DNA from: an archaeon
Lineage (GTDB): Archaea; Nanobdellota; Nanobdellia; Pacearchaeales; GW2011-AR1
DNA length: 64,000 nt
Reading direction: 5' to 3'
Assembly (NCBI GenBank): GCA_018651605.1
Contig: JABIDS010000010.1
Coordinates: forward strand, 32,053 to 96,052
Shown: positions 898 to 36,898 of the stretch, one piece after another
How the letters are laid out: every line of letters starts with the position of its first letter
Numbering within the stretch: position 1 is the first letter of the stretch
The notes under the pieces: model-generated
What the model saw: only the letters and a program-made list of their open reading frames with translations
Database searches by the model: none
Told to the model about the DNA's origin: nothing
Position numbers and translations under genes: made by a program

Positions 898-3800
898 TTA
901 ATTTTTCTTCAAAGCTTCAAAAATCTCTTCAAGCATTTCTTCATCTGAATCAAAATTCTTTTTTAGTATTTCTTTATTATTAATAATAACTTTTCCACCA
1001 TCCTTAGTAATTTTAACTAATTCCTTTAGTCCTCCAACATACCCCAATCCCGCATCAATAAATTCCCTATCTTTAGTAATCCACCTTCCCAACCCATCAT
1101 TAAAATTATATTTATAATAAGTACGTGAACCAAAAAATAACCACGCAGGATTGTAAAGAGTTATTCTAACTCCTTCCCTTAACATCTCATCAGACCAAAC
1201 AATTTTAGTTTCAATAACTTCTTCTCCCCCTTCAACTACCTCTTCTTCTCCACTAACCTCCTCCCCTTCAACCACCTCATCTCCGACCTCTCCACCATCA
1301 ACTACCTCTCCTTCCACAACCTCATCTCCACCAACATCTAAATCCCCTCCACTATCACTAACAACTTCTCCATCATTCAAATCCTCAGAAGTATCTTCAA
1401 TCCATCCATCATTTCTAATCTCAACATCCAAAAGGTTTGAAGCAACTTTATTGTAAAGTTTACCAAACCAATAAAGCCCCCGAGCCCTATAAACATTATT
1501 CACACCAAGTTCAGTCAAAAGTTCCAAATCATCAACAATACTTTTAATTTTTTCTTCAACACTTGCCTCACTCTCTCCTTTTTTAATAATCAAACCATTC
1601 ACAGAACTTTCAATTTTATTAGCCAAACTTGCACTTTCAGAACCAACAAGATAATCAACATCTCCAAAAATATCTTTCAATTCAACATTCTCTAAAATTT
1701 CATTTTCAATCCCCTTATCTCTAACAACATCTTTAACAGAATCACTATCCAACCAACATTTAACAGAAGGATCATCACAATAACCAACTTCTTTCCACCT
1801 ACTAGAAAGAGAAGACTCCTCACGATATTCTCCATTAGTAACTTGTTTACCAGGATTATCTGTAGCACAAACCCTTATAATCCCTCGAGAATAAAGTTCA
1901 GAATTCAAAAAATCCTCAACACCTGCTTGAATATTGGGATTAATCAAAGAAAGCGCAGAAGGAGTTCCAGCAACACAATTTTTCTCAGAAATAATATTAG
2001 CATCAATCTGTCCTTGAACATATTCATCATTTATTCTATTAATTGCATAAGAAGTTGAAACCTTACCAAAACCACATTCCTCACGACCATTAACACTAAC
2101 ACACAATTGTTTAAATCCCGTAGGAGCACTAAAATCTCTTGTCTTATCAACCTGACCCCCCCTTGCAACATAACCTCTATCAACATTATAATATCCAGTC
2201 GTATGAACACTGCCTGCAGAAGTAGGCAAGTCCTTCAAATAAACATTATATTGAGCACCAATATCTTTTCCAGCAAAAATATGAAAGTAAACCTTATAAT
2301 GAGAAAGGGCAGGAACAGTTGCACTAGTTAATTGACTTTCACTAAACCAAGCATGATATTGAACAGGACTATCTGGTTCTATTAGTGCCTCAAAAAAACC
2401 AGCAGAGCCAGGAACAGTTTGAGAAATAAAAGACTTGCAAACATCACTTCCTATTTCAGTTGTTGAACGAGCATTAAATGCTCTCACAGAATTAACAGCA
2501 TATTCATTTTTGAAATATCCAATAGCATTCTGAGTATTTTGCCAAGCAGATTGAATAACACTATATTCTCCACCACCACGAACCTGCCCATATGCTCCAG
2601 CAAGCAATCTTGGAACCAAAACTTCTAAAAAAGGTGCAGCTTGTTTCCAAAAAAATTCACAAACATAAATACTTTTAATTTCATCACAAACTCCAATATT
2701 CCTTCCAGTATTAACACTTTCATTTAAACAATCCACAGTTGAATTCAAAATACTTATGTAACCTTCTAATCCTGCATGAACACCTGTTAAACAAATAGGA
2801 ACAGCAATACCTTCCTTATAATTTGGCAAACATAAAACCAAACTTCCAATAATTCCTGTTTGCATTACATTATCTACCCTATATTTTCCTCCCAAATCAC
2901 ATCTTGAAGCAGGACAAACAACAGGATCACAAACATTAAACAAAAGATTACAATCAGAAATACTCATGAAATCTGTACACCTCCCAGATTCACCACCAAA
3001 AGAAGTCCCACTATCAAAAGTTTTACCATTAATTGTAATTCTCTCTCTTCCATATTGTTTAGCAGCCTCTGCAATAGCTCTCTGCGCTTTATCAATCAAT
3101 TTTTTAGAATCTCCAATACTCATTCCAGGAAAATTAATCTCTGCACCAGTTCTTTCATTATAATATCTACAAACATCATCTCCACTTTTCTTAAACTCAA
3201 TTAAACCATTCTCACCAACATTACAAATATAATAATTAACAACTCTTCCAGACTCGTCATAAGGTTTTCCAAAACCACTCAAAACATAAGTCATTTCAAC
3301 ATACCAACCATTCTCAACATCAAAAGGAACTTCTGCAGGCAAACCTTTATACGGTTCTCTATCAAAATATTTAACTTTTAACCTATCCACACCCTGAATC
3401 CTATTATTATAACCAATATCATTATCTTGTTTTAATCTATCCATTCCAGCTAAACTCATATAATCTCTAACAGATTTTTCAGCATCTCCTTCAAGTTTCT
3501 CTCCAGTTGAGACAATATAAATATCTCCTTCAGGATGATATTCTCCACCAGCCCTTTCAACCCTATTAACTTCAACAATAACTTCCTTACCACTCACAGT
3601 TTCATTAGCCGTAAAAATCTCCTTACCAAAAACTTTACTCGAAGGAATATAAATCCTCACAACCCTATTTCCAGTTTCAAAATTTTTATAAATATCATGA
3701 CTTTTATCTCCCTTAGTAATTGTTTTAATATCTCCATAAGTTACAGAATCTCCAAAAGCATTAGTCGCCTTAATCCCTAAATTTTTATAATTCTCATTAG

Positions 3801-6612
3801 CCCCTTGAGTTTTAATCGCATCGGTATTCTCCTCATAATTTTTGCCCATTAAAACCATCCTTCCCAATTCTTTATCTCCCATGTTCTTCAAAACCTCACT
3901 TCCAGAATCCTTGACATTTGACAAAGTCATTATATTTCTTCTTTGTTCATGAGTCAAACTATCCCAACTACAAATACCATTTTCACCATTAAATGAAACA
4001 CTTTTTCCACCCTCTCCAGGTAAATCAACACTTCCACCCTTACCTTTGCACCATTCATCAAATTTCACCTTAAATTTATCTTCGACTTTTTTAGTATCAA
4101 CCCTTCCTTCAAAATCCAAAAAATCACTCCTCTCAATTCCAACCTCATTCTGAATTCCTTTCAAAATATCATTAGTTTTCTTTATTTCATCAGAATAAGT
4201 TTTAACATCACTTTCAATCTCATTTTTCTTATCCAACAAACATTGTTGCAAACTAACATATTCTTTATCATTAACTAACTCCTCACATTTTTCATTCCAA
4301 CCACCAAGATTCGTCATCAAATCATTTCTCGCAATAGATTCTCCATTTAATCCAGAAAATAAACTCTTAGTAGTCAACAATGCAGACGTAGCAAAACACG
4401 CAGTCTTCATAACCTTAACCACATTACCCAATTGCGCATTAATTTTATTTAATTTCTCAATACTCTCGATTAAATCCTCTGCCATTTCCTTAGCTTTTTC
4501 AGGACTTAATTGAATAGCTCTTTTTTCAATTCCAATCCTAAATGAAAATTTCGCATTAGTTCTAGCCCCATAATCAACAGGCTGAACACTTACCTTAACC
4601 TGCTTTTTAATATTTATTCCAATCAACCTAATTCTAACCCCATTCAAATCAATTTGATTATTATCCAAACTTAATCTATGACTCTTAACATCCTTATTTC
4701 TTCGAGATTTAATAATTACATAATTTGTATCAACTTTTTCAAGTTCAATAGTTTGCTTCACATCAGCATTACTTCCAACACTTTCAACATCACCCAACCC
4801 TAAAGTTTTCTCACTTGCATCAATCATCAAAACAGCGCCAGCATCACTCTTACTAGGCCTTTTAAAATCCAATAAATCAATAAAATGTTGCTCTTCATTT
4901 ATTGAAACAACAGCCTTAGAATTACTATTATCATACTTAACCAACAAATCTTTATTCCTTTTTGCATCTCTCGCAGCAGATGAATCAGGATAATCTCTAA
5001 TAATCTGATCATAAAAATTCAAAGCCCTAGCATTCATCCCAAATTGCCGAGACAACTGTGCAGCCTCAAATAAACCATTAGCAGCATAAGCATCTTTCTC
5101 AGGCCCCTTTTCATTAGGATAAATATCAACCAAATCTCCATATTTTTGAATAGCCAAATCATAATAGTCTTTTGCTAAAAGCTCATCTGCACCAATATCT
5201 TCAACAGCCCAATTTTTATCAACCATTGCAGAAACAAAATCCAATTTAATCCCCGAATAACTATCTCCTTCTTTCAAAACCGCAACTTTTACATTATCCT
5301 CTAAAACTGCAATTTGTTCTTTAGTTAACTTTTTCTTATACCCATTTTTAATTCCTCTCTCAATCTCACTTTTCAATTCCCCAATATTCTTAGAATTTTC
5401 TTTAATTATTTCATCGACAATAGAATTAACTCCTTTCTCAACAAAATCCTTTTCAGTTCTAGAAAATTCATCCCCCACCAAAACAACATACTTTTTATTA
5501 CTCTTATCTTGCCCAAGATAAGCCAAATAAATATTCTTATTAGCATCCACTCTTTCATTAACTATAACTCTTTCTTTTATCTCATTCCCTAAACTAAATT
5601 CTGCTGCACCAGGATTTAAATCTAAAACAAATTTCCCCCCAGCCCCTGAACAACTAACACTTAACTTGCCTCCAACTCCATTTGTATCCAAACCACTAAC
5701 ACTACACTTCCCATTCAAAAACTTATCTCCTTTTGAAACCCAAGTTTGTTTATCATCAATTTGAATCAAAGCACTATCAACAGGAGCACGAATATCTTCT
5801 ACCTTAATTTTCATCCCTGCAGAACAATAATATCCATCCAAATGAATCTCCCCAGAAGTCTCACCATTCTTTAAAGTAACAGAAGTTTGCCGACTATCTG
5901 CATCCCTATAAATTCCAATTGTAGCTCCATCTGAATCAATAGATTCTGCCCGAACATACGCCTTACCATTCCAAAAACCATTCTCCAGATATTCTCTCAA
6001 CCATTCCTTATCATTCATCTCATCAATATAAAAATCACTATTCCCAATACCAAAACTCCCTTCACTATCATAATCAATAGTCGCAGTAATATTCCCCTCA
6101 ACAAAATCCGGCATATCTCTTTCAAGCGCTTGCCTTGAAACTACAATAACCAAATAACCCAAATCATTATTAACAAGAGAATCCAAAACATTAGGTTGAT
6201 TATATCTATCTGTTCTTCTTACAGCAGCCTTAGAAGGAAAATAACTAACACCTGAAACACCTTTAGGATACTCTCCCTTAAAATGTAAACTCCTAATTCT
6301 TGAAACATCAATTAAAGGATTTATCTGAATAGATCGAACCTTACAAAAAACAGGAACATTTTGCTCTTCCAATAAATCAGACCGAACAACTGCAGGACTA
6401 CAACTTCCAGGAATTATCTGCATAATTATATCCCCCCCAGATTGGCACATAGATTTATCAAAAGTCCCTCCACCAACATATCCAGAACCATAACTAGGGT
6501 TAGTAAATTGAGGATTAACAGATGAACCATAAACATTATAATCATTAACACTAACAACAAAACCAACTTGCATAAACAAAACTATTACAAATAAAAAACA
6601 AATCTTTCTCAT
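898..6612 (-). CDS. Giant (1904 aa) secreted cysteine-rich surface protein with acidic V/E/G C-terminal repeat
   Basis: The 5.7-kb ORF is uninterrupted. It has a signal-like N-terminus (MRKICFLFVIVLFMQVGFVVSV), a TPR-like helical stretch (YYDLAIQKYGDL...FYDQIIRDYPDSSAARDA), a dense Cys cluster in the C-terminal half and an acidic degenerate repeat near the end. Its start overlaps the upstream stop by 4 nt. Confidence 0.75.
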   Translation of the reverse strand: MRKICFLFVIVLFMQVGFVVSVNDYNVYGSSVNPQFTNPSYGSGYVGGGTFDKSMCQSGGDIIMQIIPGSCSPAVVRSDLLEEQNVPVFCKVRSIQINPLIDVSRIRSLHFKGEYPKGVSGVSYFPSKAAVRRTDRYNQPNVLDSLVNNDLGYLVIVVSRQALERDMPDFVEGNITATIDYDSEGSFGIGNSDFYIDEMNDKEWLREYLENGFWNGKAYVRAESIDSDGATIGIYRDADSRQTSVTLKNGETSGEIHLDGYYCSAGMKIKVEDIRAPVDSALIQIDDKQTWVSKGDKFLNGKCSVSGLDTNGVGGKLSVSCSGAGGKFVLDLNPGAAEFSLGNEIKERVIVNERVDANKNIYLAYLGQDKSNKKYVVLVGDEFSRTEKDFVEKGVNSIVDEIIKENSKNIGELKSEIERGIKNGYKKKLTKEQIAVLEDNVKVAVLKEGDSYSGIKLDFVSAMVDKNWAVEDIGADELLAKDYYDLAIQKYGDLVDIYPNEKGPEKDAYAANGLFEAAQLSRQFGMNARALNFYDQIIRDYPDSSAARDAKRNKDLLVKYDNSNSKAVVSINEEQHFIDLLDFKRPSKSDAGAVLMIDASEKTLGLGDVESVGSNADVKQTIELEKVDTNYVIIKSRRNKDVKSHRLSLDNNQIDLNGVRIRLIGINIKKQVKVSVQPVDYGARTNAKFSFRIGIEKRAIQLSPEKAKEMAEDLIESIEKLNKINAQLGNVVKVMKTACFATSALLTTKSLFSGLNGESIARNDLMTNLGGWNEKCEELVNDKEYVSLQQCLLDKKNEIESDVKTYSDEIKKTNDILKGIQNEVGIERSDFLDFEGRVDTKKVEDKFKVKFDEWCKGKGGSVDLPGEGGKSVSFNGENGICSWDSLTHEQRRNIMTLSNVKDSGSEVLKNMGDKELGRMVLMGKNYEENTDAIKTQGANENYKNLGIKATNAFGDSVTYGDIKTITKGDKSHDIYKNFETGNRVVRIYIPSSKVFGKEIFTANETVSGKEVIVEVNRVERAGGEYHPEGDIYIVSTGEKLEGDAEKSVRDYMSLAGMDRLKQDNDIGYNNRIQGVDRLKVKYFDREPYKGLPAEVPFDVENGWYVEMTYVLSGFGKPYDESGRVVNYYICNVGENGLIEFKKSGDDVCRYYNERTGAEINFPGMSIGDSKKLIDKAQRAIAEAAKQYGRERITINGKTFDSGTSFGGESGRCTDFMSISDCNLLFNVCDPVVCPASRCDLGGKYRVDNVMQTGIIGSLVLCLPNYKEGIAVPICLTGVHAGLEGYISILNSTVDCLNESVNTGRNIGVCDEIKSIYVCEFFWKQAAPFLEVLVPRLLAGAYGQVRGGGEYSVIQSAWQNTQNAIGYFKNEYAVNSVRAFNARSTTEIGSDVCKSFISQTVPGSAGFFEALIEPDSPVQYHAWFSESQLTSATVPALSHYKVYFHIFAGKDIGAQYNVYLKDLPTSAGSVHTTGYYNVDRGYVARGGQVDKTRDFSAPTGFKQLCVSVNGREECGFGKVSTSYAINRINDEYVQGQIDANIISEKNCVAGTPSALSLINPNIQAGVEDFLNSELYSRGIIRVCATDNPGKQVTNGEYREESSLSSRWKEVGYCDDPSVKCWLDSDSVKDVVRDKGIENEILENVELKDIFGDVDYLVGSESASLANKIESSVNGLIIKKGESEASVEEKIKSIVDDLELLTELGVNNVYRARGLYWFGKLYNKVASNLLDVEIRNDGWIEDTSEDLNDGEVVSDSGGDLDVGGDEVVEGEVVDGGEVGDEVVEGEEVSGEEEVVEGGEEVIETKIVWSDEMLREGVRITLYNPAWLFFGSRTYYKYNFNDGLGRWITKDREFIDAGLGYVGGLKELVKITKDGGKVIINNKEILKKNFDSDEEMLEEIFEALKKN

Positions 6613-8483
6613 CCAAACGCCACCCCCACATTTCCATCTTTAACTCTCTGATAATTACCTTGCAAATCTTCAACCTTTGAAGGAATACCAAAATCATCAA
6701 CACTAAGAATCAATTTATTAGAACCACTCAACTCACTTTCACTAACATAATAATTATTAGTTCCCCCTCCAGAAATACCGCTCTCAATATTTTGCTCAGG
6801 AACTTCCATATTAAAACATTTTTCTTCCGTAAAACCAAACACTCCTGCAACACCACTTTTAGGAACATCAACACATTTCAAACTACTATCTCCTTCTAGC
6901 TTCATATTAACATCACTATAAACATAAACTTGAACTTCATACTGCCCACCTGACAATTTAATCTTTTTTTGTTCAGGATATGCAAGAGTAACTTTACTCT
7001 CTCCATCAAATGTAACAATAGCCCGGCTATTTGAACCAATATTCATTTCTAAATCCAACTCATATTCTTTATCCAATACAATATCTACAACACCACCCTC
7101 AACACTATCCATTAAATATTTTTCAGTTTTGTAACCCTCTGCACTAGCAATTAAATAACCATTAACACATTGAGGAAACTTTTCAGTCAAGATAGCATTA
7201 TCACCAACAATCTTGCTCTCACCAATCTCACAACTACTATCAAAACACTTAAACTTAATTCTTGCCTCCACAGGCTCCAAATTACTATTATAAGTATAAA
7301 CATCAAATTCACTATTCTTATGTTCACATAGTTCTGGAATAACGTCAGGCAATCCTTCAACATCTAATGCTTCTCTTGGTTTATTTTTATCAATCATAAC
7401 AACAACTGGAAACTGAAACATTTCATTTCCTGAATACAACTGAACCAAAACTGGAAAAGCAAAATCATAAACAAAATGATAAGGAGCATAACAAAAGCCC
7501 ATCATTTCCAAACCTTCTTGATTTCCAATAGGATCTGCTCGGATAATTCCTCCATCAGAAGGCCAAACTTCCATTTTCATAGGCCAATTAGGTGAATACA
7601 TGAAATTAACATTAGTATCAACATCCTCTCCAATATCTCTAACAAAATATTTATTTTCAGAAGATTTCAAATCATAATAATCTCCTTTAATTTTAATTGC
7701 AGGAACATTTGCTTCCAAAGCATCAATCATTCCCCTTCTCACTCCATCAACCTCCCAAATTTTTGGAACACAACTAATTTCAGTTCCATCAACAGGAGCA
7801 TACAATCTCAAAATATCCACACCATAATTCTCCAAAAACATTTCATCTTTATTATTCAAATAAATCTTCTTAGCTAAATCATAAAACTTACCAATGCTGG
7901 ATTGAACATTATCTGAATGACTCTCCCCAGTCCAACTACTTTCACCAAAACTAATCTTTATCCTTTGCTTAACTTCAAAATTAATTTTATCTTTATCTAT
8001 CTCAATATCCACTCCAACTTTTTCATTATCTAATTCAACCTCAAACCCATTTTTTTCAAAATAACTAAAATCACAAAGAACAACACCGCCTTCAACAAAA
8101 TCTTCTAATTGACTCTCCATTTTACCTTCACTAGGAATTTGCTCTTTTTTAATTCCGTTTCCAGAAACATAATACCAATAAGGAATTCCCAAACCCATAA
8201 AACCTAAATGAGATGAAAAAGGCATATACTCACTTCCTGGAGAAAAATCAGGACTTTCAATATAACCTCCTTGTTCCCCCAAAATCCTAGCACCATTAGA
8301 AACTTCATTTTCAATACAACTTAAATAATAATTATAAACAGGCTCTAATTCTGCAGGAACATTAGCAAAAGAAAAACTAGCCCTAAAAATAAAAAATAAA
8401 ACAATCCCAGTAACAATAACTAATGCAAGAATAATAAAAACACTCACTTGCCCCTTAGAATCTTTCATTTTCAAATCACGCAT
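6609..8483 (-). CDS. Large extracellular protein with class III (type IV pilin-like) N-terminal signal
   Basis: The ORF-track start at 8513 is a TTG, so I prefer the ATG at 8483. The N-terminus MRDLKMKDSKGQ/VSVFIILALVIVTGIVLFFIF is a basic leader, then KG, then a roughly 20-aa hydrophobic helix. The rest of the protein is soluble and beta-rich in appearance. Confidence 0.7.
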   Translation of the reverse strand: MRDLKMKDSKGQVSVFIILALVIVTGIVLFFIFRASFSFANVPAELEPVYNYYLSCIENEVSNGARILGEQGGYIESPDFSPGSEYMPFSSHLGFMGLGIPYWYYVSGNGIKKEQIPSEGKMESQLEDFVEGGVVLCDFSYFEKNGFEVELDNEKVGVDIEIDKDKINFEVKQRIKISFGESSWTGESHSDNVQSSIGKFYDLAKKIYLNNKDEMFLENYGVDILRLYAPVDGTEISCVPKIWEVDGVRRGMIDALEANVPAIKIKGDYYDLKSSENKYFVRDIGEDVDTNVNFMYSPNWPMKMEVWPSDGGIIRADPIGNQEGLEMMGFCYAPYHFVYDFAFPVLVQLYSGNEMFQFPVVVMIDKNKPREALDVEGLPDVIPELCEHKNSEFDVYTYNSNLEPVEARIKFKCFDSSCEIGESKIVGDNAILTEKFPQCVNGYLIASAEGYKTEKYLMDSVEGGVVDIVLDKEYELDLEMNIGSNSRAIVTFDGESKVTLAYPEQKKIKLSGGQYEVQVYVYSDVNMKLEGDSSLKCVDVPKSGVAGVFGFTEEKCFNMEVPEQNIESGISGGGTNNYYVSESELSGSNKLILSVDDFGIPSKVEDLQGNYQRVKDGNVGVAFG

Positions 8484-8610
8484 TTTTCTTACCCTTTTTA
8501 ACCTTATTTTCAATTAATTTAATAATTTCAGTATTAATATCTTTTTCATTACTATCTTTAAACTTTTCCCATAATTCAGAATCTTCTATCAAAAGCAAAT
8601 ATTTTTTCAT
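8476..8610 (-). CDS. Small ribbon-helix-helix (CopG/Arc-like) protein, 44 aa
   Basis: This ORF is below the ORF-track cutoff. The ATG is at 8610, and the TGA at 8476-8478 overlaps the downstream ATG (ATGCGTGA). The translation is MKKYLLLIEDSELWEKFKDSNEKDINTEIIKLIENKVKKGKKNA, which fits a beta-strand plus two helices. It is a paralog of the ORF at 32825-32965. Confidence 0.45.
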   Translation of the reverse strand: MKKYLLLIEDSELWEKFKDSNEKDINTEIIKLIENKVKKGKKNA

Positions 8611-8787
8611 TTTAGTCTTTTCAAAATGTTAGCATTTTACACCCCAATTCCCCTTTTCTTTTTCATTTTACACCCAATCTCCCTTTTTCTTTACATTACT
8701 AAAAACATACACTATTTAAATCTTTCTTATTAACTTAGTAACTTACTTAGTAACTAAGAACAACATAAGAAACCTAAAAAGAATAAA

Positions 8788-8858
8788 TGGTCCTACCAAG
8801 AATCGAACTTGAGATTTATCCACGTCAAGGATACGTTTTGCCACTAAACTATAGGACC
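8788..8858 (-). tRNA. tRNA-Val (anticodon GAC)
   Basis: The reverse complement folds as a cloverleaf: acceptor GGTCCTA/TAGGACC, D stem GTTT/AAAC, anticodon stem TATCC/GGATA with loop TTGACGT, and T arm TCAAG-TTCGATT-CTTGG. CCA is not encoded. Confidence 0.85.
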
Positions 8859-8898
8859 CTATTATAGGATTAAAATCTTAATTTTTAAAACCTTTGTT

Positions 8899-9180
8899 TT
8901 AAATCCTTCTCTTTCCAATTTTCCCACCTTTAACCTGCCCCCAATTCCCTCTAACAAACTCAACATCCAATTCTCTAACATCAATCTTAGCCAACCTACA
9001 TAAATCTTCAAAAAATTCCGCATCCATCAATCTCCGCTCAACATAATAATTTTTCAAACTAGAATATTTAACATCAAAACCAAACTGTAAAATTCCTCTC
9101 AATGAAATACAACCCAATCTAGCCACAACTAAATCCAAAAATTTTCTCTGCATTCCTTTCTTAAACAACACTCTATCCAT
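8899..9180 (-). CDS. Hypothetical small protein (possible HTH)
   Basis: The ORF-track start at 9273 would overlap the divergent L44e gene, so I chose the internal ATG at 9180 (MDRVLFKKGMQRKF...). There is no diagnostic motif. Confidence 0.45.
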   Translation of the reverse strand: MDRVLFKKGMQRKFLDLVVARLGCISLRGILQFGFDVKYSSLKNYYVERRLMDAEFFEDLCRLAKIDVRELDVEFVRGNWGQVKGGKIGKRRI

Positions 9181-9248
9181 AAATAACTCCGACACCATCA
9201 ACATCCAAAACTTTAAAAACCCTTTCATCAACCAATTATTATACGAAA

Positions 9249-9563
9249 ATGAAAGTACCAAAAAAAACACCAAGATTTTGCCCCAAATGCAAAAAAAGAA
9301 CAGAACAAAAAATAGACTTAGTTAGTACAGGTGGTAAAAGAGGAACTTTAAAACGAGGTTCAATCGCACGTTCAAAATTAAGAAACGCTTCACCAGGTAA
9401 AGGAAACCAAGGAAAAAGAAGTAGAAAAGCAATCAAAAACTGGAAAAGAAAAACAAAAACAACTACAAGAAAAGTTTTAATCTATACATGTCAAGAATGC
9501 AAAAAATCAAAACATGCTAAAAAATCCAGAAGAGTATCTAAATTAATTGTAGGAGATAAATAA
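9249..9563 (+). CDS. rpl44e: 50S ribosomal protein L44e (eL42)
   Basis: The protein is very basic. It carries the zinc-ribbon pairs CPKCKK...CQECKK and the N-terminus MKVPKKTPRFCPKCKKRTEQKI typical of L44e. Confidence 0.85.
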   Translation: MKVPKKTPRFCPKCKKRTEQKIDLVSTGGKRGTLKRGSIARSKLRNASPGKGNQGKRSRKAIKNWKRKTKTTTRKVLIYTCQECKKSKHAKKSRRVSKLIVGDK

Positions 9564-9686: not shown

Positions 9687-10646
9687 ATGGCAAAAAAACC
9701 AAAAACAACAAAAGTAATATCAAGAAGAAAAAAATTCATAAAAGTAGAAGTTCCCTTAGCAAAATCAACAATTGAACTAATTGGTTCATCACCTGAAGAA
9801 ATTCAGGGAAGAACAATAAAACTAGACTTAACAAGACAATTAAAAGGAAAATCAGTAGAAGCAACCGTTAAGATAAAAACAGAAAACGAAAAACCGATAG
9901 CAAAACCAATCAAACTAAAGCTTATGCCTTATTTCATAAGAAGAATGATAAGAAAAAGAATAAGCTATGTTGAAGATTCTTTTGAAACACCTTCACAAGA
10001 AAGCATGATAAAAATAAAACCTTTCCTAATCACAAGAAAAAGAGTATCAAGAGTTGTAAGAAAAACTCTCAGAAATAAATGTAAAAACTGGATAGAAGAT
10101 TACATTGCAGAAAGAAAAGACGACGAAATTTTCAACGAAGTTTTATCAAATAGAATGCAGAAACCATTATCTCTAATGTTAAAGAAAACATATCCTCTTT
10201 CGCTATGTGAGATAAGAGTTTTAGAAGTAAAAAGAACCTTAGAAAAAGATGAAATACCAAAAATAAAACCAAAACCAAAAAAAGTAGAACAAAAAGAAGA
10301 AATAGAACAAGGTTTAGATCAATTAGCAGAAATAGAAGAAGAAAAAAAGAAAGCAGAAGAAGAAATAAAACAAGCTCAAGAAAAAGCAGTTAAAAAGGAA
10401 GAACAAGAAGAGAAAGATAAAATAACAGAAGTAAAAGATTCTGCAAAATTACTTACTTCAGAATCAGCGGCGCTTTCAGAATCCAAAAAGGATTCTGAAC
10501 ACAAATCAGATTCTGAACCAGCTACTAAAGAAATAAAAGAAGCTAAAGAAAAAACTAAAGAAAAAGAAACTACCACTAAAGAAAAACCTAAAAAAGAAAA
10601 AACACCTGCAGGTGTACCTTCTGAAGGCAAGGAGAAAAAAGAATGA
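9687..10646 (+). CDS. rps3ae: 30S ribosomal protein S3Ae (eS1) with ~130-aa K/E-rich C-terminal extension
   Basis: The N-terminal roughly 185 aa (KKFIKVEVPLAKSTIELIG...IKLKLMPYFIRRMIRKR...CEIRVLEV) match the S3Ae family pattern. A long lysine/glutamate tail follows and ends in TPAGVPSEGKEKKE. Confidence 0.85.
   Translation: MAKKPKTTKVISRRKKFIKVEVPLAKSTIELIGSSPEEIQGRTIKLDLTRQLKGKSVEATVKIKTENEKPIAKPIKLKLMPYFIRRMIRKRISYVEDSFETPSQESMIKIKPFLITRKRVSRVVRKTLRNKCKNWIEDYIAERKDDEIFNEVLSNRMQKPLSLMLKKTYPLSLCEIRVLEVKRTLEKDEIPKIKPKPKKVEQKEEIEQGLDQLAEIEEEKKKAEEEIKQAQEKAVKKEEQEEKDKITEVKDSAKLLTSESAALSESKKDSEHKSDSEPATKEIKEAKEKTKEKETTTKEKPKKEKTPAGVPSEGKEKKE
10602..10631 (+). repeat. In-frame 30-nt module copy 1 (TPAGVPSEGK) in S3Ae
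   Basis: The sequence is ACACCTGCAGGTGTACCTTCTGAAGGCAAG. The first 14 nt are a perfect palindrome. Confidence 0.8.
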
Positions 10647-22636: not shown

Positions 22637-23040
22637 TATAATTTCTCCACCAACTCCTTTAATGTAATATATTTTAATTTATTAGGTGCACTAATTTTCA
22701 TCATTTTCTTATCTTTAAATTCTTCAGGAATACCATCATGACATTTAACCCTCAAAAAAGCTTGCTTTCCAATTCCTCTTCTATGGTCTGGCAACATTCC
22801 TCGAATTCCTCGCTTTAACAACATATATGCAACTCTTCCATGCTTAGGCCCTTTTTGCGAATGCCCACCTTTAGCTTTTAAAACTCTATATTTCTCAATA
22901 GTATCTTTTTTATTTCCAGTAATAATAACTTTCTCAGAATTCACAATAACAATCTCCCCACCTTCCAAAGCTTTCTTAGCAACAAAGCTACAAAGTCTTC
23001 CAAAAACTGCCCCACTTCCATCAATAATTATCTCACTCAT
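22636..23040 (-). CDS. rpl13: 50S ribosomal protein L13 (uL13)
   Basis: IIDGSGAVFGRLCSFVAKKAL...KGGHSQKGPKH...LKRGIRGMLP matches the L13 pattern, and the gene is syntenic with S9. Confidence 0.9.
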   Translation of the reverse strand: MSEIIIDGSGAVFGRLCSFVAKKALEGGEIVIVNSEKVIITGNKKDTIEKYRVLKAKGGHSQKGPKHGRVAYMLLKRGIRGMLPDHRRGIGKQAFLRVKCHDGIPEEFKDKKMMKISAPNKLKYITLKELVEKL

Positions 23041-23420
23041 ATTACTTCAACCCCTTCCAATTTATTATTACTTTCAATCTCATCCTTAATACTCTTAACC
23101 TCACATCCAGCCTTTTTCAACTTTTCTCTTGCTTGTTCTGAAAATCCAAGAGCACTAACCTTAATCTTTCTATTAACTTCACCTTGCCCCAAAACCTTTC
23201 CAACAACCATAATCTTATCAGTCTTGCCCTCAGAGGGTACACCTGCAGGTGTGGCATCATTCAATCCATCCAAATTAATCTTAGTATACTGACTAGCCGG
23301 TGCACTCAATCTTTTACCTAAATCCAAAAGCCCATGTTTCTTAGCCAACAAAACAGTCTCAACTATTTCAGGATTCCGTTTCTTCTTTAATCTTTTATCT
23401 ATTTGTGTTTTTGATATCAT
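23037..23420 (-). CDS. rpl18e: 50S ribosomal protein L18e (eL18) carrying a ~10-aa insertion
   Basis: KTQIDKRLKKKRNPEIVETVLLAKK...INLDGL[NDATPAGVPSEGKTDK]IMVVGKVLGQGEV matches L18e. The position between RpoD and L13 fits the conserved archaeal order. Confidence 0.85.
   Translation of the reverse strand: MISKTQIDKRLKKKRNPEIVETVLLAKKHGLLDLGKRLSAPASQYTKINLDGLNDATPAGVPSEGKTDKIMVVGKVLGQGEVNRKIKVSALGFSEQAREKLKKAGCEVKSIKDEIESNNKLEGVEVI
23223..23252 (-). repeat. In-frame 30-nt module copy 2 (TPAGVPSEGK) in L18e
   Basis: The coding-strand sequence is ACACCTGCAGGTGTACCCTCTGAGGGCAAG. It is 28/30 identical to copy 1. Confidence 0.8.
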
Positions 23421-23639: not shown

Positions 23640-24200
23640 ATGGATTTTGATGAGATAGATGAAGATGAGCTTTTGGATTTAGGAATCTATGATCCTAAGA
23701 TAAGTCTAGATGAAAAAGCAAAACTTTTATATAATCATGGAGCAAGTTATGAAGAAATTTGCAGTGTTCTTTATTCTTCAACAGACCATAATCTTTCAGT
23801 AATTGGGGTTGCAAAAAGTTTGCATAACTTTGGAGCAGATTGTTCTCAGATTCCTGAGGCATTTACAAGATTCTGTCTTACACCTTATTCAGGTCTGTGT
23901 GAAGGAGAATATTCTTATAGTTATAAAGATCTTACAAAAGCATTAAAGACACTTGATTACAGTCCTAGAGAAATAATGACTAGCTTAACAAGAAGTTTCC
24001 CAGTAGATTATAATTTAGATTCATATTATTCAGAATTAGATCTTAATCATTTAGAAGAGATTTTATTCTCACTAGGAGTTACAGATTTTAATGAACTAGT
24101 AACAGAATTACAATGTATTGGTTTTAGAAAACAAGATATTAAAATTCATTTAAGAGAAATTGGTCATTATCCTGGAAGGATTTTTGCAGAACCAATTTAG
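23640..24200 (+). CDS. Hypothetical acidic helical-repeat protein
   Basis: The 186-aa ORF has an acidic N-terminus (MDFDEIDEDELLDLG) and four loosely repeated units of about 35 aa (..L...G.S..EI...L..). It lies antisense-oriented inside the r-protein/RNAP cluster. Confidence 0.45.
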   Translation: MDFDEIDEDELLDLGIYDPKISLDEKAKLLYNHGASYEEICSVLYSSTDHNLSVIGVAKSLHNFGADCSQIPEAFTRFCLTPYSGLCEGEYSYSYKDLTKALKTLDYSPREIMTSLTRSFPVDYNLDSYYSELDLNHLEEILFSLGVTDFNELVTELQCIGFRKQDIKIHLREIGHYPGRIFAEPI

Positions 24201-25032: not shown

Positions 25033-25584
25033 CTAAACCCTCCGCCCCCTTCTACCACCCTTCTTCTTCGGCCCACCACGAGCAATCCTTGTTGTATCCA
25101 TTATTGACAAAATCTTAAAACCTGCACGAGTCAAAGATTTAATAGCAGCATGAGCTCCAGGCCCAGGATTATTCTGCCCAGTCTTAGCTCTTATCTTAAC
25201 ATAAAATCCAGTAATCCCATTATCCCTAGCCTCTTCAGCAACTCTCTGCGCAATAAACATCGCAATAGTTGGATTCGCCTTCAATCTATCCTGCTTAGTC
25301 GACTGCCCACCAGAAAACTTCGCCAAACTCTTCCCAGACATATCAGTCAAATTCATAACAGTATTATTAAAAGTCGTATAAATATTCAAAACACCAATCC
25401 TATCATCTTTTCTCTTGCCCCCAGAGGGTACACCTGTAGGTGTAGGAGCTTTTCTCTCTTCTTTAACTTCTTCCTTTTTCTCTTCAACAACTTCATTCTT
25501 CGTATCTTCTTTGGTTTCAACTACTTCAGGTTTTTCTTTAGTATCTTTTACTTCTTCAACAACTTTCTTTTCTTTTTCTACCAT
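25033..25584 (-). CDS. rps11: 30S ribosomal protein S11 (uS11) with ~55-aa K/E-rich N-terminal extension
   Basis: The core is GVLNIYTTFNNTVMNLTD...GPGAHAAIKSLTRAGFKI...D.T.IARGG..KKGGRRGRRV. It is preceded by a lysine/glutamate-rich tail ending in TPTGVPSGGK. Confidence 0.9.
   Translation of the reverse strand: MVEKEKKVVEEVKDTKEKPEVVETKEDTKNEVVEEKKEEVKEERKAPTPTGVPSGGKRKDDRIGVLNIYTTFNNTVMNLTDMSGKSLAKFSGGQSTKQDRLKANPTIAMFIAQRVAEEARDNGITGFYVKIRAKTGQNNPGPGAHAAIKSLTRAGFKILSIMDTTRIARGGPKKKGGRRGRRV
25414..25443 (-). repeat. In-frame 30-nt module copy 3 (TPTGVPSGGK) in S11
   Basis: The coding-strand sequence is ACACCTACAGGTGTACCCTCTGGGGGCAAG. The arms ACACCT/AGGTGT are retained. Confidence 0.75.
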
Positions 25585-26207
25585 TATTCTTTATCCTCAC
25601 TTTCATTTACTTCTTTGCCCTCATCAGGTACGCCTTCAGGTGCAACTTCTTCAGCCTTCTCTACTTTTTTCAAATCTTCAACCACTTCACCTTCAATTCC
25701 TTCCTCCAAAACCTCTTTCTTAATTTTCTCAATCTTAGACTTCTTATTATCAGGAATTTTCATAACTAAATTCAACTTAACCTCTCCTTCTTCAACCATT
25801 CCAACTTGATAAGACGGAACATTAACAATCTGGTTACCAATCGCAACATGTTTATGAGTAATCAATTGTCTAGCTTGTTTAGGAGTATTAGCAAATTTCT
25901 TAGCAACAACAATTGTCTGCAATCTTCTCTTTAACCAATCTTCTTTATCCAAAGCCAAAGCATCAGCAATACTCTCAACAGGAAAACCCTTCTTCTGATA
26001 TCTCTCAATAAAACCACTCTTCTCTTCATCACTTGCAGTAATCAATTTCTTCGCAAGATTCCTAACTCTCTTAATAGCAGCATCAGCTTTCCAAATCTCT
26101 CTCTTAGTTTTCAAACCATATTTCTCCCTAAGAACATTCTCTTCATCTATTCTTGCCTTATCAAAAGGTTTCTGCGGTCGCGAATATTTTTTCTGTTGTT
26201 TTTTCAT
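25584..26207 (-). CDS. rps4: 30S ribosomal protein S4 (uS4) with acidic C-terminal extension
   Basis: KKYSRPQKPFDKARIDEENVLREKYGLKTKREIWKA matches S4, and the S4 RNA-binding domain follows. The tail is ...EEVAPEGVPDEGKEVNESEDKE. Confidence 0.9.
   Translation of the reverse strand: MKKQQKKYSRPQKPFDKARIDEENVLREKYGLKTKREIWKADAAIKRVRNLAKKLITASDEEKSGFIERYQKKGFPVESIADALALDKEDWLKRRLQTIVVAKKFANTPKQARQLITHKHVAIGNQIVNVPSYQVGMVEEGEVKLNLVMKIPDNKKSKIEKIKKEVLEEGIEGEVVEDLKKVEKAEEVAPEGVPDEGKEVNESEDKE
25614..25643 (-). repeat. In-frame 30-nt module copy 4 (APEGVPDEGK) in S4
   Basis: The coding-strand sequence is GCACCTGAAGGCGTACCTGATGAGGGCAAA. This is the most diverged copy. Confidence 0.65.
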
Positions 26208-32824: not shown

Positions 32825-32965
32825 ATGAAAAAAGAGGAAAAACTGAAGAAATTTTTATTAGAAATTCCTGAAGAAATATGGGAAAAATGGAAGCTCACAG
32901 TTCCTCGTTCTATTTCATTAAATAAAGCATTAATAGAGTTATTAAAAAAGGAAGGAAAAAAATGA
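32825..32965 (+). CDS. Small ribbon-helix-helix (CopG/Arc-like) protein, 46 aa
   Basis: This ORF is below the ORF-track cutoff. The translation is MKKEEKLKKFLLEIPEEIWEKWKLTVPRSISLNKALIELLKKEGKK. Its TGA overlaps the ATG of the 1311-aa gene (ATGA at 32962-32965). Confidence 0.5.
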   Translation: MKKEEKLKKFLLEIPEEIWEKWKLTVPRSISLNKALIELLKKEGKK

Positions 32966-35900
32966 AATTTAAAATTATTTTGTTTCTTTTTGCACTTATC
33001 TTTTCATTAAATTTAGTTTCAGGGTTTTTAATCTCAGATCAAGGAACCAATGTAATAAACTTAACTTCAGGAAATTTAACAATATTAGCTAATTTAACAA
33101 TTAGTATATATGATAATGTCACTGGAGGAAATTTAGTCTTTGAACAAAATTTCAGCGATGGAATAGCCAATGGTTCCTGGAATGTAATGATTGATCCAAC
33201 CCTAGAATACGGAATAAGTTATTATAAAGATTATAAAATAAATAACGAAGACCTTGATTTTGATGGTAATGAAAGACTAGAATTTCAATCATCAGTTGGA
33301 GAAATTAATAATGTTTCATTTATTAATTTCTCAATAATAAACTCATGTTCTGCTGGAAGTTCAATAAGATTAATCTATGAAAATGGTAGTGTAGAGTGCG
33401 AGTCAGATGATGATTCTGGAAGTTTAAATATTACAAATTATGCATTAAAAAATCAATCAGAAACATTTACAGGCAATATCACAACTTCCCAAACAGGATT
33501 CTTTGGCTGGCTTGGAAGTTTAACTTCACGAATAACAAAATTATTCGCACAAGATATTAATTTCAATGGAACAATTAATGGAAGTGGGAATATAAATATT
33601 ACAGGAAATGTAACTGCAGAGTATTATTATGGAGATGGTTCACAATTATCTAATCTTCCTTCAACAGCAGGTGAAGGAATATATAATTCAACTTCATGGA
33701 ATAGGACTGAAGGAAACGTAACTCTAGCTAATCCTGGAGATTATGTTGGTATAGGAACAACAACACCAAACAATTTATTACAGGTAGAGGGATTAATTAA
33801 TTTTGAACCGGTTAGTTATAATATTGGATTAGGAATTTCAACACTTGCAGAATTAACAACCGGACTTAGAAATATTGCTATTGGAAGTGAAGCAGGAGAG
33901 AAATTAACAGAAGGGAATAATAATGTTTTTGTTGGAGATAAGGCAGGAGAAGAAACCACAACAGGAGATAATAATATAGCCTTTGGAAGAAATGCTCTTA
34001 CTGAGAATGTAGATGGTTATAGAAACTTTGCTATAGGTGACGGGGCTCTTTCTTCAAGTGCTACTACTTCTGATAATATGGGATTAGGACTTAATTCATT
34101 AGGTTTTTTAATTTATGGAACGCAAAATACCGCGATTGGGGGTTCTAGTTTAAGATTTACAGCAAAAGGAGATAGTAATGTAGGGATAGGTTATAGGGCA
34201 GGGAAAGGTATAGAAGGAGATTCTAATAAAAGCGACAATGTTTTTATAGGGCACGAAAGTGCATTGGATGTTTTATCAGGTGCAGATGAAAATGTAATAA
34301 TTGGTTCTTCATCAGGTGCTGGATTAACAACAGGAGCAAGTAATATATTTATAGGATATAAATCAGGATTTAATCAAAATACAAGTTCAAATACTTTAAT
34401 TATAGATAATCAGGATAGAGGAAGTATTATTAATGAAATAAGTAAATCCTTGATTTACGGAACATTTGATGCAGACCCTAATAATCAAAATTTAACTTTT
34501 AATGCAAATGTAGGTATAGGAACATCCTCACCAAACCAAAAACTAGAAGTCAATGGTTCAGGAAACTTTTCAGGTAATGTTTCAGCAGACTATTTCTGTA
34601 ATTCAACAGGAAGTTGTTGGAATACTCAAGGTGGTGCAAGCGGAGGTGATGCAAACTACCAATTCACAGATAATAATTTTAATGGGAGTGGAGATTTTAC
34701 AACAACTGGGGAAATTATTATTGAGGAAGACAACAAAAAACTATTATTAGGTGCAGGACAAGATGCTTCAATATTTTATAATGGTTCTGATATGATTATA
34801 AATCCTCAAGAGGTAGGTGATGGAGATTTACTTTTAACAGATGGTTCAAATACTTTAAGAAATACTTTAACAGGAACAAGGTATGTTTATAATTATGATG
34901 GAACTCAATATGATTTCCAAATAAATGGAACAAGTCATTTTAAAGTTACTTCAGCTACAAGTGGGATTTCAGTTGGTGACCAAGTTGAAGATTCTTTTAT
35001 AACTATGGGATCAGGTAATTATTTCACCTGGGATGCTGATGAAGATAGAATTAAAACTATTGGTGACTTTGGAATTTCAAGCACCTTTTCTTTTACTTCA
35101 AACACAGGATATCCTGATTATTTTGAACATATAGATATTGAAGAAGGTGATAAGTATTTAAAATGGAATATGAATAATTCAAATTATTATAATTGGTATT
35201 TTGATGAAGAAGAATTTATGAGATTAGATAGTATAGGGAATTTTACTATTCAAGGAAACATAACTGCAGACTATTTCTGTAATTCAACAGGAAGTTGTTG
35301 GAATACTCAAGGTGGTGCAAGCGGAGGTGATGCAAGTTACCAATTCACAGATAATAATTTTAATGGTTCAGGTAATTTTACAACTTTAGGAAATGTTGGA
35401 ATTGGAACTAATACTCCTAGTGACTTATTAAGTCTCAGTGCTTTAAATCCTACTTTTAAAATTTATGCTGATGGTGGTGGTGAAGCTAGGATTTGGATGC
35501 GTTCTAATAATGCAAATGAACAATCAGAAATTAAAATGCTTAGTGGAGGATTATGGGAATTTAGACATTTAGGTGAGGATGAAGATATTGTCTTTAGTGT
35601 TAATGATGGTGGTGTAGATACCGAATCTATGAGAATACAGGGAGATTCAGGTAATGTTGGAATTGGAACTGATAATCCTAGTGAATTATTACATTTATCT
35701 GCAGATAACCCAGTTCTTAGATTATCTGCAGAAACAGGTAGTTCAGCAACTATTAATCTGAGAGGTAATAATGCTAATGAAAATGCAACTATAACTATGT
35801 TGAATGATGGAGAATGGAGTTTTAAACATTCTGGAGAGGATGAGGATATTGTCTTTAATGTTAATGATGGTGGTGTGGATACAGAAATTATGAGGATAGA

Positions 35901-36897: not shown

Positions 36898-36898
36898 A

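Follow-up and report, generated by a model that had tools for sequence, protein, structure and literature searches.

The 64,000-nucleotide stretch analysed here (the window) carries at positions 9687-10646, on the forward strand, the gene for ribosomal protein S3Ae (eS1), whose homologs contain Pfam PF01015. Its product of 319 aa ends in a long K/E-rich C-terminal tail. Five codons upstream of the stop, positions 10602-10631 (+) read ACACCTGCAGGTGTACCTTCTGAAGGCAAG and encode TPAGVPSEGK. The initial annotation had singled out this segment as a 30-nt module whose first 14 nt are a palindrome and which recurs in three further ribosomal-protein genes. Both observations hold. The palindrome, ACACCTGCAGGTGT, is exact at 10602 and at 23239 and has one mismatch at 25430, against 0.02 matches in shuffled sequence. 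The motif GVP..GK occurs four times in a six-frame scan of the window, always in a ribosomal-protein gene (S3Ae, L18e, S11 and S4), and a covariance-model scan with filters off returns exactly four copies. In the S3Ae copy two stems can be drawn, stem 1 (ACACC/GGUGU, with the loop UGCA) and stem 2 (CCUU(C)/(G)AAGG).

The other three copies lie on the reverse strand, as do their host genes. In L18e (23037-23420) the 30-mer recurs at 23223-23252 as ACACCTGCAGGTGTACCCTCTGAGGGCAAG with two mismatches (0 expected), in a surface loop; stem 2 remains paired despite the two changes (CCCUC/GAGGG). Ribosomal protein S11 (uS11, 25033-25584) holds a copy at 25414-25443, ACACCTACAGGTGTACCCTCTGGGGGCAAG, in its K/E-rich N-terminal extension; it encodes TPTGVPSGGK and its stem 2 includes a U.G pair. 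The copy in the acidic C-terminal tail of S4 (uS4, 25584-26207) lies at 25614-25643, GCACCTGAAGGCGTACCTGATGAGGGCAAA, and encodes APEGVPDEGK. It is the most diverged of the four, with both stems weakened and non-standard pairs; S4 proteins of distant lineages (L035/L036, L040/L045 and L109) have related copies in their tails. Six residues are the same in all window copies: Pro, Gly, Val, Pro, Gly and Lys. The string IPSEGK in the ORF at 6609-8513 is a coincidence, being written in different codons. A further 9 kb or so of the same genome beyond the window contain no additional copy. At Rfam gathering scores the window yields only a 5S rRNA and six tRNAs, and no hit coincides with any of the four copies.

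The codons of the module had been called unusual for this genome, and this is correct for GGC but not for AAG. GGC accounts for 4.1% of Gly codons, GTA for 18% of Val codons and CCC for 8% of Pro codons; the first two are present in all four window copies and the third in two. AAG, at 27% of Lys codons, is not really unusual. GGC precedes Lys only six times in 95 cases in the window genes, and four of the six are module copies, which rules out a codon-context effect.

The suspicion that the module might be an insertion is supported by comparison with the closest orthologs, in which both S3Ae and L18e show a 27-nt gain. For S3Ae, the two closest orthologs with comparable DNA (L123 and L122) have empty sites with identical flanks. 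The difference between filled and empty sites is exactly 27 nt, and no flank is duplicated beyond a 1-nt ambiguity. The L18e copy is likewise a 9-aa (27-nt) insertion, giving a protein of 127 aa where all orthologs have 118-119 aa. The 30-nt sequence is thus present as described, but the inserted unit in S3Ae is shorter: it comprises only 10602-10628, ACACCTGCAGGTGTACCTTCTGAAGGC. The AAG that ends the 30-mer (10629-10631) is native and part of the AAGGAG upstream of ndk. The native 3' flank (10629-10645, +), AAGGAGAAAAAAGAATG, has the same letters in the relatives' empty sites and looks like a Shine-Dalgarno sequence followed by the ndk start codon, the start overlapping the S3Ae stop. The identical S3Ae gene, module included, is found in five independent ENA/Logan assemblies, so the module is not an assembly artefact. 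Judged from these alignments, the S3Ae copy is a recent 27-nt gain in the tail, missing in the two closest relatives with comparable DNA.

A dispersed family of double-hairpin repeats

The S3Ae module belongs to a dispersed family of GC-rich double-hairpin repeats, with a core of 27-33 nt, within coding genes of Pacearchaeota/Woesearchaeota-type DPANN archaea. A covariance model (R1) was built from 33 copies in other genomes, without any window sequence; it comprises two 5-bp stems, a spacer A and a 3' GGCAAR. This model of foreign copies scores the S3Ae copy at 35.4 bits (E = 6.9e-9), confirming that the recurrence is more than local low complexity. Model scores for the L18e, S11 and S4 copies are 36.6, 31.4 and 29.1 bits. 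No match to the strict window-type DNA pattern turned up in metagenome contigs or genome contigs. Relaxed by one codon and run as a degenerate pattern against 185,579 species genomes, the pattern gave 32 hits. Of these, 29 are archaeal loci (31 copies) in about 20 Woese-, Pace- and Nanoarchaeota genomes (MAGs), several with three to five copies each, and the other three are bacterial and look like chance matches. Viral contigs searched with the pattern gave no match. The census is biased by the search pattern, which forces stem 1 and the 3' end, and each genome was represented by 8-kb pieces. Typical copies elsewhere are 33 nt long (GCACCYAARGGTGTACCCTCTNNNGAGGGCAAA); the 30-nt form, one codon shorter, is lineage-specific and common to the four window copies and an L122 copy. 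The element is found across at least two orders, with copies of 48-67% GC in genomes of 27-38% GC. No earlier account of this element turned up in the literature searched.

Membership of such a family changes how the absence of the module from orthologs should be read. The initial annotation had named orthologs without a conserved module, together with a similar frequency in random K/E-rich proteins, as what would refute the finding, and the motif is indeed absent from 119 of 120 S3Ae homologs. A dispersed repeat, however, predicts precisely this absence, so the test would mislead.

A rival explanation would be chance, the palindrome and its recurrence being by-products of a Pro/Gly peptide in K/E-rich tails. 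The peptides T-P-x-G-V and P-S-E-G alone fix four of the five base pairs in each stem, and single-copy folds are no better than those of synonymous resamples. Yet shuffled sequences give 0-0.02 matches where two to three are observed, the rare GGC is in all copies, the gains are clean insertions, and the 29 further loci are limited to one clade among all the genomes searched. We consider that chance can be dismissed for practical purposes.

The proposal that the segment forms an RNA hairpin survives at the level of the family and not at that of the single copy, which cannot be separated from its peptide. The S3Ae hairpin is marginally more stable than shuffles (z = -1.7) but shows no extra stability given its peptide and the genome's codon usage (P = 0.36). 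Resampling of synonymous codons was not significant for any single copy (P = 0.08-0.36), the 30-nt form of the window folds weakly (about -9.5 kcal/mol), and the L18e copy does no better than shuffles. The single-copy argument is therefore dropped in favour of covariation across the family. In stem 2, two synonymous third positions pair as C-G in 21 copies, as U-A in 7-8 and as a wobble in two, and are mismatched in two (Fisher P = 3e-4). At the pair next to it, 24 copies have U-A and six have C-G, the former giving Ser/Glu and the latter Pro/Gly (Fisher P = 3e-5). Altogether stem 2 has 14 double-sided changes against 4.6 +/- 1.6 in shuffles, and none of 500 shuffles reaches the observed score. 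In stem 1 one compensated pair is seen, C-G to U-A in the L122 copy (Pro/Gly to Ser/Asp); elsewhere stem 1 is fixed by the search pattern.

These data also bear on whether the peptide itself is the conserved object, a short linear motif [TA]P.GVPS(.)EGK on flexible ribosomal-protein tails that recruits, or is modified by, a common partner, the DNA similarity reflecting only recent copying. In keeping with such a motif, the four window copies and all 31 strict-pattern copies use one reading frame, their positions are exposed tails or loops, and the six window residues named above do not vary. The paired changes nevertheless swap Ser/Glu for Pro/Gly, or Pro/Gly for Ser/Asp, keeping the stems and not the residues. 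Genuine copies are read in other frames with their hairpins kept, giving unrelated peptides such as HRSVYPK..GAK and TRGRTSEGG, and nested long forms give quite different peptides again. Synonymous third positions covary, and the rare codons GGC and GTA are retained in all copies, even between lineages with about 30% difference in their S4 core proteins, where synonymous sites should be saturated. The peptide reading is largely refuted, and we think it very improbable. Since stem 2 covaries, loops are variable and genome-specific while stems are conserved, variants share their ends and other frames are used, the conserved entity is the nucleic-acid double hairpin of two adjacent 5-bp stems, with TPAGVPSEGK as its by-product.

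Longer variants of 36-84 nt share both ends with the core, and tandem and nested copies are present. All delimited lengths are multiples of three (27, 30, 33, 36, 42, 51, 54, 66, 69 and 84 nt), and every variant is free of stops in the frame in which it is read; the boundaries of one weak match, 59 nt long, are uncertain. Lengths in multiples of three without in-frame stops are the signature of translated sequence. This matters for the idea of a small intervening sequence, an archaeal bulge-helix-bulge intron or a translational-bypass element that is spliced out or skipped and so absent from the protein. A GC-rich structured insert in AT-rich coding sequence does recall mitochondrial bypass elements, which, reportedly in work of Lang et al. 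from 2014, derive from GC clusters, and DPANN archaea are known for unusual tRNA introns. The lengths in multiples of three, where such an intron would be free of the reading frame, and the predicted fold, two separate hairpins and not a bulge-helix-bulge, speak against it. The idea was rejected on these two grounds, and although the absence of splicing is only inferred, we can give it scarcely any credence.

Host genes, orientation and possible mechanisms

Ribosomal-protein genes, which by our own estimate make up some 5% of coding DNA, host about 37% of copies (11-12 of 31 unbiased hits). They include S3Ae, S4, S11, L18e, L3, L13, S17 and P0/P1. Other hosts are an MBL-fold hydrolase, GatA, PolD, FtsY, an Obg-like GTPase, FKBP, Rrp4, DUF2779 and large surface proteins; the element is not specific to ribosomal proteins. 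The insertions occupy tails and loops of variable length.

All copies with E < 1e-3 are located in ORFs, and all of the approximately 40 copies within ORFs are sense-oriented, in the window for genes of both DNA strands. The single possible non-coding copy is L122:14399-14425, an element-like intergenic stretch that matches no tRNA and no known Rfam family. GC skew says nothing about replication direction, since gene strand dominates it. Were the repeat merely selfish DNA, it should be found in intergenic and antisense positions too, yet the copies are essentially all sense within ORFs; read in reverse complement it would give LPS.EGTP.G, a peptide just as harmless. The sense-only location in ORFs means that a function or mechanism at the mRNA level fits at least as well.

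We favour, with some reserve, a dispersed intragenic repeat, comparable in its behaviour to Rickettsia palindromic elements or mitochondrial GC clusters, that spreads within genomes by an unknown mechanism tied to the direction of transcription, without excluding a cis-acting role in mRNA. Spread within genomes is in line with the loop codons, whose similarity is 0.65 within and 0.48 between genomes (permutation P = 0.001). Resident copies would be duplicated by transposition-like insertion or ectopic conversion. They would survive only where a Pro/Gly-rich hydrophilic peptide of 9-11 residues is harmless, presumably in the disordered Lys/Glu-rich tails and surface loops that are abundant in the ribosomal proteins of these organisms. 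The hairpins may be recognised on the sense strand, as mRNA or non-template DNA, by the copying machinery or by a binding factor; such recognition would account for the orientation that all coding copies share with their host genes. The S3Ae insertion is most probably a passenger that the protein tolerates, lengthening a flexible tail by TPAGVPSEG. The host genomes (available as 8-kb pieces) showed neither a mobilising enzyme nor terminal inverted repeats nor target-site duplications, and no transposase was seen when the window was inspected by eye. The copying step is hence pure inference.

The same orientation data could instead reflect a host-selected cis-acting mRNA element, a double hairpin bound by a trans-acting protein or RNA that places the stability, processing or translation of mRNAs of the translation apparatus under common control. 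As these compact genomes have almost no untranslated regions, such an element would be placed in coding sequence. Evidence in its favour can be summarised as (i) ORF copies are sense without exception, including those in window genes of opposite strands; (ii) translation-related hosts are enriched (ribosomal proteins, P0/P1, FtsY, Obg-like GTPase, Rrp4 and GatA), and the ribosomal-protein enrichment could denote function instead of tolerance; (iii) covarying stems with genome-specific loops are expected if the element co-evolves with one binding partner; (iv) the element is conserved over at least two orders; (v) presumed orthologous copies keep their hairpins by compensatory change, in the stalk protein P1 (L103 and L105) and in the MBL-fold hydrolase (L095 and L107), which suggests constraint in place rather than a dead insertion in decay. 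Against this, the distribution is very patchy. Close relatives, at 85-91% protein identity, are without the copies in S3Ae and L18e, and those in S4 and S11 are missing from L009, a relative at a somewhat greater distance. The stems of the window S4 copy have decayed, and the weak fold of the 30-nt form is a further difficulty. Unrelated genes serve as hosts too (large surface proteins, MBL-fold hydrolase, PolD and DUF2779), the tandem, nested and length-variant copies resemble insertion dynamics, and a binding partner is not known. We regard such a regulatory element as rather unlikely, and prefer the dispersed repeat.

A bolder possibility, doubtful but worth stating, is that the repeat is propagated through RNA or acts through it; it would then be a kind of element unknown in archaea. 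In one version a small structured RNA would be inserted into abundant mRNAs, or copied by one of the reverse transcriptases that these lineages carry, and would return to the genome by recombination. Spread by way of RNA would explain both the sense-only orientation and the bias to highly expressed translation genes. In another version the repeat would be a clade-wide tag in coding sequence, placing the mRNAs of ribosomal proteins and other translation genes under one trans-acting factor, a prokaryotic analogue of a ribosomal-protein mRNA regulon.

Two further candidates were set aside by eye. With the Shine-Dalgarno/anti-SD region or the 16S decoding site, no more than 5 nt can be paired. A CRISPR repeat, the target of a diversity-generating retroelement (DGR) or a restriction site (SbfI, PstI or AarI) misfits copies that are dispersed singly in ORFs and whose stems covary.

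Comparison with known repeats, and consequences

Small non-autonomous stem-loop repeats with many copies per genome are familiar as REPs and MITEs (PMC3184786, PMC3733652, PMC10969869). REPs are extragenic and tied to RAYT transposases, whereas the confident copies of the DPANN element all lie in ORFs. MITEs, usually 50-500 bp long, carry terminal inverted repeats and target-site duplications, features not found in the DPANN element; its ends, RCACC... and ...GGC(AAR), do not form an inverted repeat. Being strictly intragenic and oriented by transcription, it misfits REP, MITE and IS200-type models, which points to an unknown copying mechanism or to a function at the mRNA level. PARCELs, in Mollicutes and others, are palindromic DNA translated within proteins and spread across lineages; they are tandem intragenic repeats that build surface-protein domains, in contrast to a single dispersed unit in housekeeping genes (PMC2996958).

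Rickettsia palindromic elements (RPEs) are multi-copy palindromic repeats of a symbiotic or parasitic lineage with reduced genomes that have repeatedly inserted in-frame in unrelated functional protein genes (PMC10969869). Like them, the DPANN repeats are in-frame and add a conserved peptide at positions tolerated by the fold (PMC10969869). RPEs are bacterial, about 100-150 bp long, fall into ten sequence families and occur between genes too, whereas the archaeal element, with its 27-33 nt (84 at most), is essentially confined to genes, always sense and enriched in ribosomal-protein genes. Its size and its restriction to DPANN archaea exclude it from the RPEs; only the in-frame insertion behaviour is common to both, and kinship of sequence would not be expected.

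There is a resemblance, too, with mitochondrial GC clusters and double-hairpin elements (yeast GC42; var1/rps3), short GC-rich hairpin repeats of sporadic occurrence in an AT-rich compact genome (PMC4478555). These share with the DPANN element conserved stems, variable loops and merged or nested variants with one common terminus, and in var1/rps3 a copy likewise sits within a ribosomal-protein gene (PMC4478555). They are organellar, mostly intergenic and flanked by short direct repeats; the DPANN copies are in archaeal genomes, intragenic and without flanking direct repeats. The DPANN element does have the traits of a GC-rich palindrome in an AT-rich genome, conserved stems, variable loops and merged variants, but this is a resemblance in kind only.

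Universal, highly conserved DPANN genes are growing longer through a structured repeat of 27-33 nt, a concrete way in which the so far unexplained tails and insertions in the ribosomal proteins of these archaea can arise. The repeat would, to our knowledge, be among the shortest dispersed repeats reported. Such insertions can confound the ribosomal-protein alignments used for archaeal phylogeny and can mimic shared 'signature insertions'. The covariance model makes a census of every DPANN genome possible, and the tryptic peptide TPAGVPSEGK, together with RNA-seq junctions, could show expression of the element directly.

The S3Ae module and its copies in the window

The module in the S3Ae tail is a recent copy of an intragenic, in-frame, GC-rich double-hairpin repeat family of Pace- and Woesearchaeota. 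The S3Ae gene (9687-10646) encodes 319 aa with a long K/E-rich tail, and the element at 10602-10631 (+), ACACCTGCAGGTGTACCTTCTGAAGGCAAG, encodes TPAGVPSEGK, with the stop five codons further on. Both the 30-nt module and the palindrome described in the initial annotation were located at 10602. The 14-nt palindrome is exact there and at 23239 and occurs with one mismatch at 25430 (0.02 matches in shuffles); the whole 30-mer has a second occurrence at 23223-23252 (-), with two mismatches. A six-frame scan of the window found GVP..GK four times, in S3Ae, L18e (23037-23420), S11 (25033-25584) and S4 (25584-26207) and nowhere else, as the claimed recurrence in three other ribosomal-protein genes would predict. 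Since the nine ribosomal-protein genes of the window (our own gene calls) amount to only ~4.5 kb, or 7% of its DNA, placement of all four copies in such genes is unlikely by chance (probability ~2e-5).

GGC and GTA are present in all four copies; across the window GGC makes up 4.1% of Gly, GTA 18% of Val and CCC 8% of Pro codons. GGC is therefore unusual, as originally suggested, but AAG, thought to be equally so, supplies 27% of Lys codons and is not. A Gly-Lys codon-context effect behind GGC is excluded, since window genes contain six GGC-AAR pairs and the modules themselves account for four. Five ENA/Logan samples independently yielded assemblies of an identical S3Ae gene, module included, so the module is not an artefact.

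Alignment with S3Ae orthologs, the check for an insertion that had been proposed at the outset, gave a clear answer. The set of 120 closest S3Ae proteins is Pacearchaeota-like throughout, and in it only the window protein has the motif; the homolog P0005 has a related 'ASKDVPSEGK'. When the 3' end of the gene was aligned with loci L123 (encoding P0003) and L122 (encoding P0005), both ~85% identical in protein, the window showed a clean 27-nt gain at 10602-10628. Its two flanks are the same in all three sequences (AAAAAAGAAA[A/T]A and AAGGAGAAAAAAGAATGATAG), which makes the final AAG of the 30-mer native. No target duplication is visible at the S3Ae insertion in this alignment. L18e has 127 aa in the window, whereas every close ortholog has 118-119 aa; the excess corresponds to a 27-nt block, placed in a loop that carries other indels in other lineages. 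In the relative L009, whose L18e is 80% identical, S4 and S11 lack the module.

The cistrons concerned are tightly coupled. At 10643-10646 (ATGA) the S3Ae stop and the start ATG of ndk overlap, and the S11 start and S4 stop share one base at 25584. The next start codon lies 12 nt downstream of the S3Ae copy and 30 nt downstream of the S4 copy. Many S3Ae tails end in KKPRKKKxEEKxE.

A clade-wide family of double hairpins

A strict first DNA pattern gave no match beyond the window's own strain. In a survey of eighty S4 loci from metagenomes, module-like DNA was found in the S4 tails of only two distant lineages, L035/L036 (ACA CCC GCA GGT GTA TCC CCT AAA GAG GGC AAA) and L040/L045 (GCA CCC TCT GGT GTA CCT TCT GAG GAA GGC AAA). 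GGT GTA and rare GGC recur in both, and each is one codon longer. Other short motifs, which may be peptide motifs or further DNA repeats, also recur in Pacearchaeota-like uS4 tails (L020, L031, L032, L034, L055 and others): I[QP]TPEEI lies within the tail, whereas KPIEV[KI]A forms the extreme C-terminus.

A relaxed pattern with the extra codon, CACCYNNNGGYGTAYCYN{3,6}GRRGGCAAR, matched 32 stretches in 185,579 species genomes and none in viral contigs. Twenty-nine lie in genome bins (MAGs) of Woesearchaeota, Pacearchaeota or Nanoarchaeota; the other three are bacterial, in high-GC genomes, two with a length that is not a multiple of 3. All 31 archaeal pattern copies are 33 nt long (consensus GCACCYAARGGTGTACCCTCTNNNGAGGGCAAA, encoding AP[KES]GVPS.EGK), in-frame, sense-oriented and within long ORFs, and several genomes hold 3-5 copies each. 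The suspicion that the recurrence was more than low complexity is thus upheld by a match to a clade-wide, multi-copy family. Ribosomal-protein genes host ~11-12 of the 31 unbiased matches (estimated share of coding DNA ~5%). Hosts confirmed by Pfam are L3, L22, L10/P0, P1, L31e, S17, S6e, L13 and S4, together with an MBL-fold hydrolase, an Rrp4-like protein, FtsY, an Obg-like GTPase, FKBP, a GatA-type amidase and DUF2779; S11, S5, PolD and large acidic surface proteins were assigned by eye.

R1, a covariance model built from non-window copies only, recovered with filters off exactly the four window copies (36.6, 35.4, 31.4 and 29.1 bits). In other loci it added a tandem partner inside the L107 MBL-fold hydrolase and variants of 36, 42, 51, 54, 66, 69 and 84 nt, which share a 5' end, GCACCYAARGGTGTAC, and a 3' end, GRGGGCAAA, with extra hairpins nested within loop 2. 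All lengths that could be delimited are multiples of 3; one more weak match spans 59 nt with uncertain boundaries. Some copies are read in other frames with stems intact, such as L095:3112-3147 (GCACC GCUC GGUGU A CCCCA ... UGGGG CAAA, translated HRSVYPKISGAK).

The structure, two 5-bp stems with 4-nt loops, was evaluated on 33 copies, in which 97.9% of all cells pair. In stem 2 the third positions of the Pro and Glu/Gly codons form C-G 21 times, U-A 7-8 times, a wobble twice and a mismatch twice (Fisher P = 3e-4), and at the adjacent pair 24 copies have U-A and 6 have C-G, corresponding to Ser...Glu versus Pro...Gly (Fisher P = 3e-5). Stem 2 has a covariation score of 0.159, which 0 of 500 shuffles reach (0.102 +/- 0.009 in shuffles), and pairing is lost when partner columns are slid. 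Stem 1 is uninformative in pattern-derived copies, as the search pattern fixed its sequence. The L122 S3Ae copy (GCAUCUAAGGAUGUA), found later by the model (36.2 bits), carries a double change in stem 1 from C-G to U-A, with APKGV becoming ASKDV. Such stem-preserving residue swaps, and the copies read in other frames, speak against the peptide; the conserved entity is the double hairpin.

The predicted fold of the 33-nt form is the expected double hairpin (-15 kcal/mol) and that of the long form has three to four hairpins (-30 to -32 kcal/mol, z ~-2.7); the 30-nt form of the window folds less stably (~-9.5 kcal/mol). Four of the five pairs in each stem are already set by the peptides T-P-x-G-V and P-S-E-G. 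Single copies fold no better than synonymous-codon resamples, so the structural case rests on the family. The RNA hairpin first read from the S3Ae copy is therefore supported by covariation at family level and not by that copy alone.

The long (~84 nt) subfamily has both ends as in the 33-nt element, two or three hairpins more and the peptide APKGVHQGGASTSSRPR..S.E.ST.GKK. It occurs in tails of uL5, eL32, uS17 and uL22 (L108:6016-6099, L108:3024-, L116:6436-6519, L102:4241-, L110:4746-), one copy being read in another frame. In three genomes the element occupies one loop of the MBL-fold hydrolase, after WLGHAGFLI (L092:4775-4807, L095:5373-5405 and L107:3265-3336, the last a tandem pair), representing either a hot spot or an old insertion whose hairpins have been retained. 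Very large window ORFs (1904, 624, 1311, 1495 and 558 aa) form two clusters at 898-8513 (-) and 32962-43059 (+). These are probably surface proteins, with signal-peptide-like starts judged by eye, and contain no element copies, although similar large acidic proteins elsewhere carry two or three.

Probable spread within genomes and relation to known repeats

The pattern of copies bears signs of within-genome spread. The two loop codons are more similar within than between genomes (0.65 versus 0.48, permutation P = 0.001), with genome-specific choices such as TCG/GCA in CSMAG_1761, AAG/AAA in binchicken_co136_1 and GAA/GAA in BMS3Abin17. The L122 copy has the derived 30-nt form in common with all four copies of the window, and the S3Ae and L18e copies differ solely by one compensated pair. 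The S4 copy has decayed stems and has diverged furthest, and S4 tails of other lineages also bear the element, so S4 may be its oldest site in the window lineage. Independent insertions have struck the same gene at more than one position. In S3Ae, the window and L122 carry the element at separate points of the tail, and S17, L22 and S3 give further cases in other genomes.

Palindromic repeats translated within genes are already known as a kind. Rickettsia palindromic elements also insert in-frame into multiple genes, but are ~150 bp and bacterial (PMC10969869). Mitochondrial GC clusters, or double-hairpin elements, are likewise GC-rich hairpins in an AT-rich genome, with conserved stems, variable loops and merged variants with a common terminus, and one lies inside var1/rps3; they are, however, mostly intergenic, organellar and flanked by short direct repeats (PMC4478555). 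The element meets neither the extragenic location required of REP nor the terminal inverted repeats and target duplication required of a MITE. No transposase was found, nor were terminal inverted repeats or a target duplication. None of the four window sites matches an Rfam family, and full-text literature searches turned up no account of an element of this type from DPANN archaea; the insertions in DPANN universal proteins treated in a 2026 preprint are different ones that define clades. The family is apparently undescribed so far. What is unusual is its extreme shortness, its ORF-only and sense-only placement and its bias to ribosomal-protein genes.

Element sites are tails and variable loops, and sense orientation in ORFs holds on both DNA strands. 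We propose that the element would be copied from resident copies, with its stems as the feature recognised on the sense strand, and would be retained where a short Pro/Gly-rich hydrophilic peptide does no harm. The chief puzzle is the restriction to sense orientation: no antisense copies were seen, though the peptide that the reverse complement would encode, LPS.EGTP.G, is equally mild. This speaks for a connection with transcription or mRNA, through the copying mechanism or through function.

Two observations in L122 are leads only. The region between tRNA-Val and S3Ae (L122:7265-9448) holds a reverse transcriptase (RVT_1 Pfam match), 2.4 kb upstream of the S3Ae copy, and a LAGLIDADG endonuclease ORF; judged by eye, the reverse transcriptase looks DGR-type (motif LGNLTSQFFANLYL...YVDD). 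Both are absent at the matching place in the window (~8513-9249). An element-like core, GCACCGAAGGUGUACUCUUCGAGCAAA (16.5 bits), lies within a GC-rich intergenic stretch, L122:14375-14445 (-), that folds well (-29.3 kcal/mol, z = -2.4). The stretch matches no tRNA and no Rfam family; it is the sole non-coding element-like copy seen, and might represent a small RNA or a source copy. In the window, a 186-aa ORF of unknown function (23640-24200, +) separates L18e from the gene for RNA polymerase subunit D; a relative has DUF2080 and LAGLIDADG ORFs at the matching place, so the intergenic slot between these two genes is variable.
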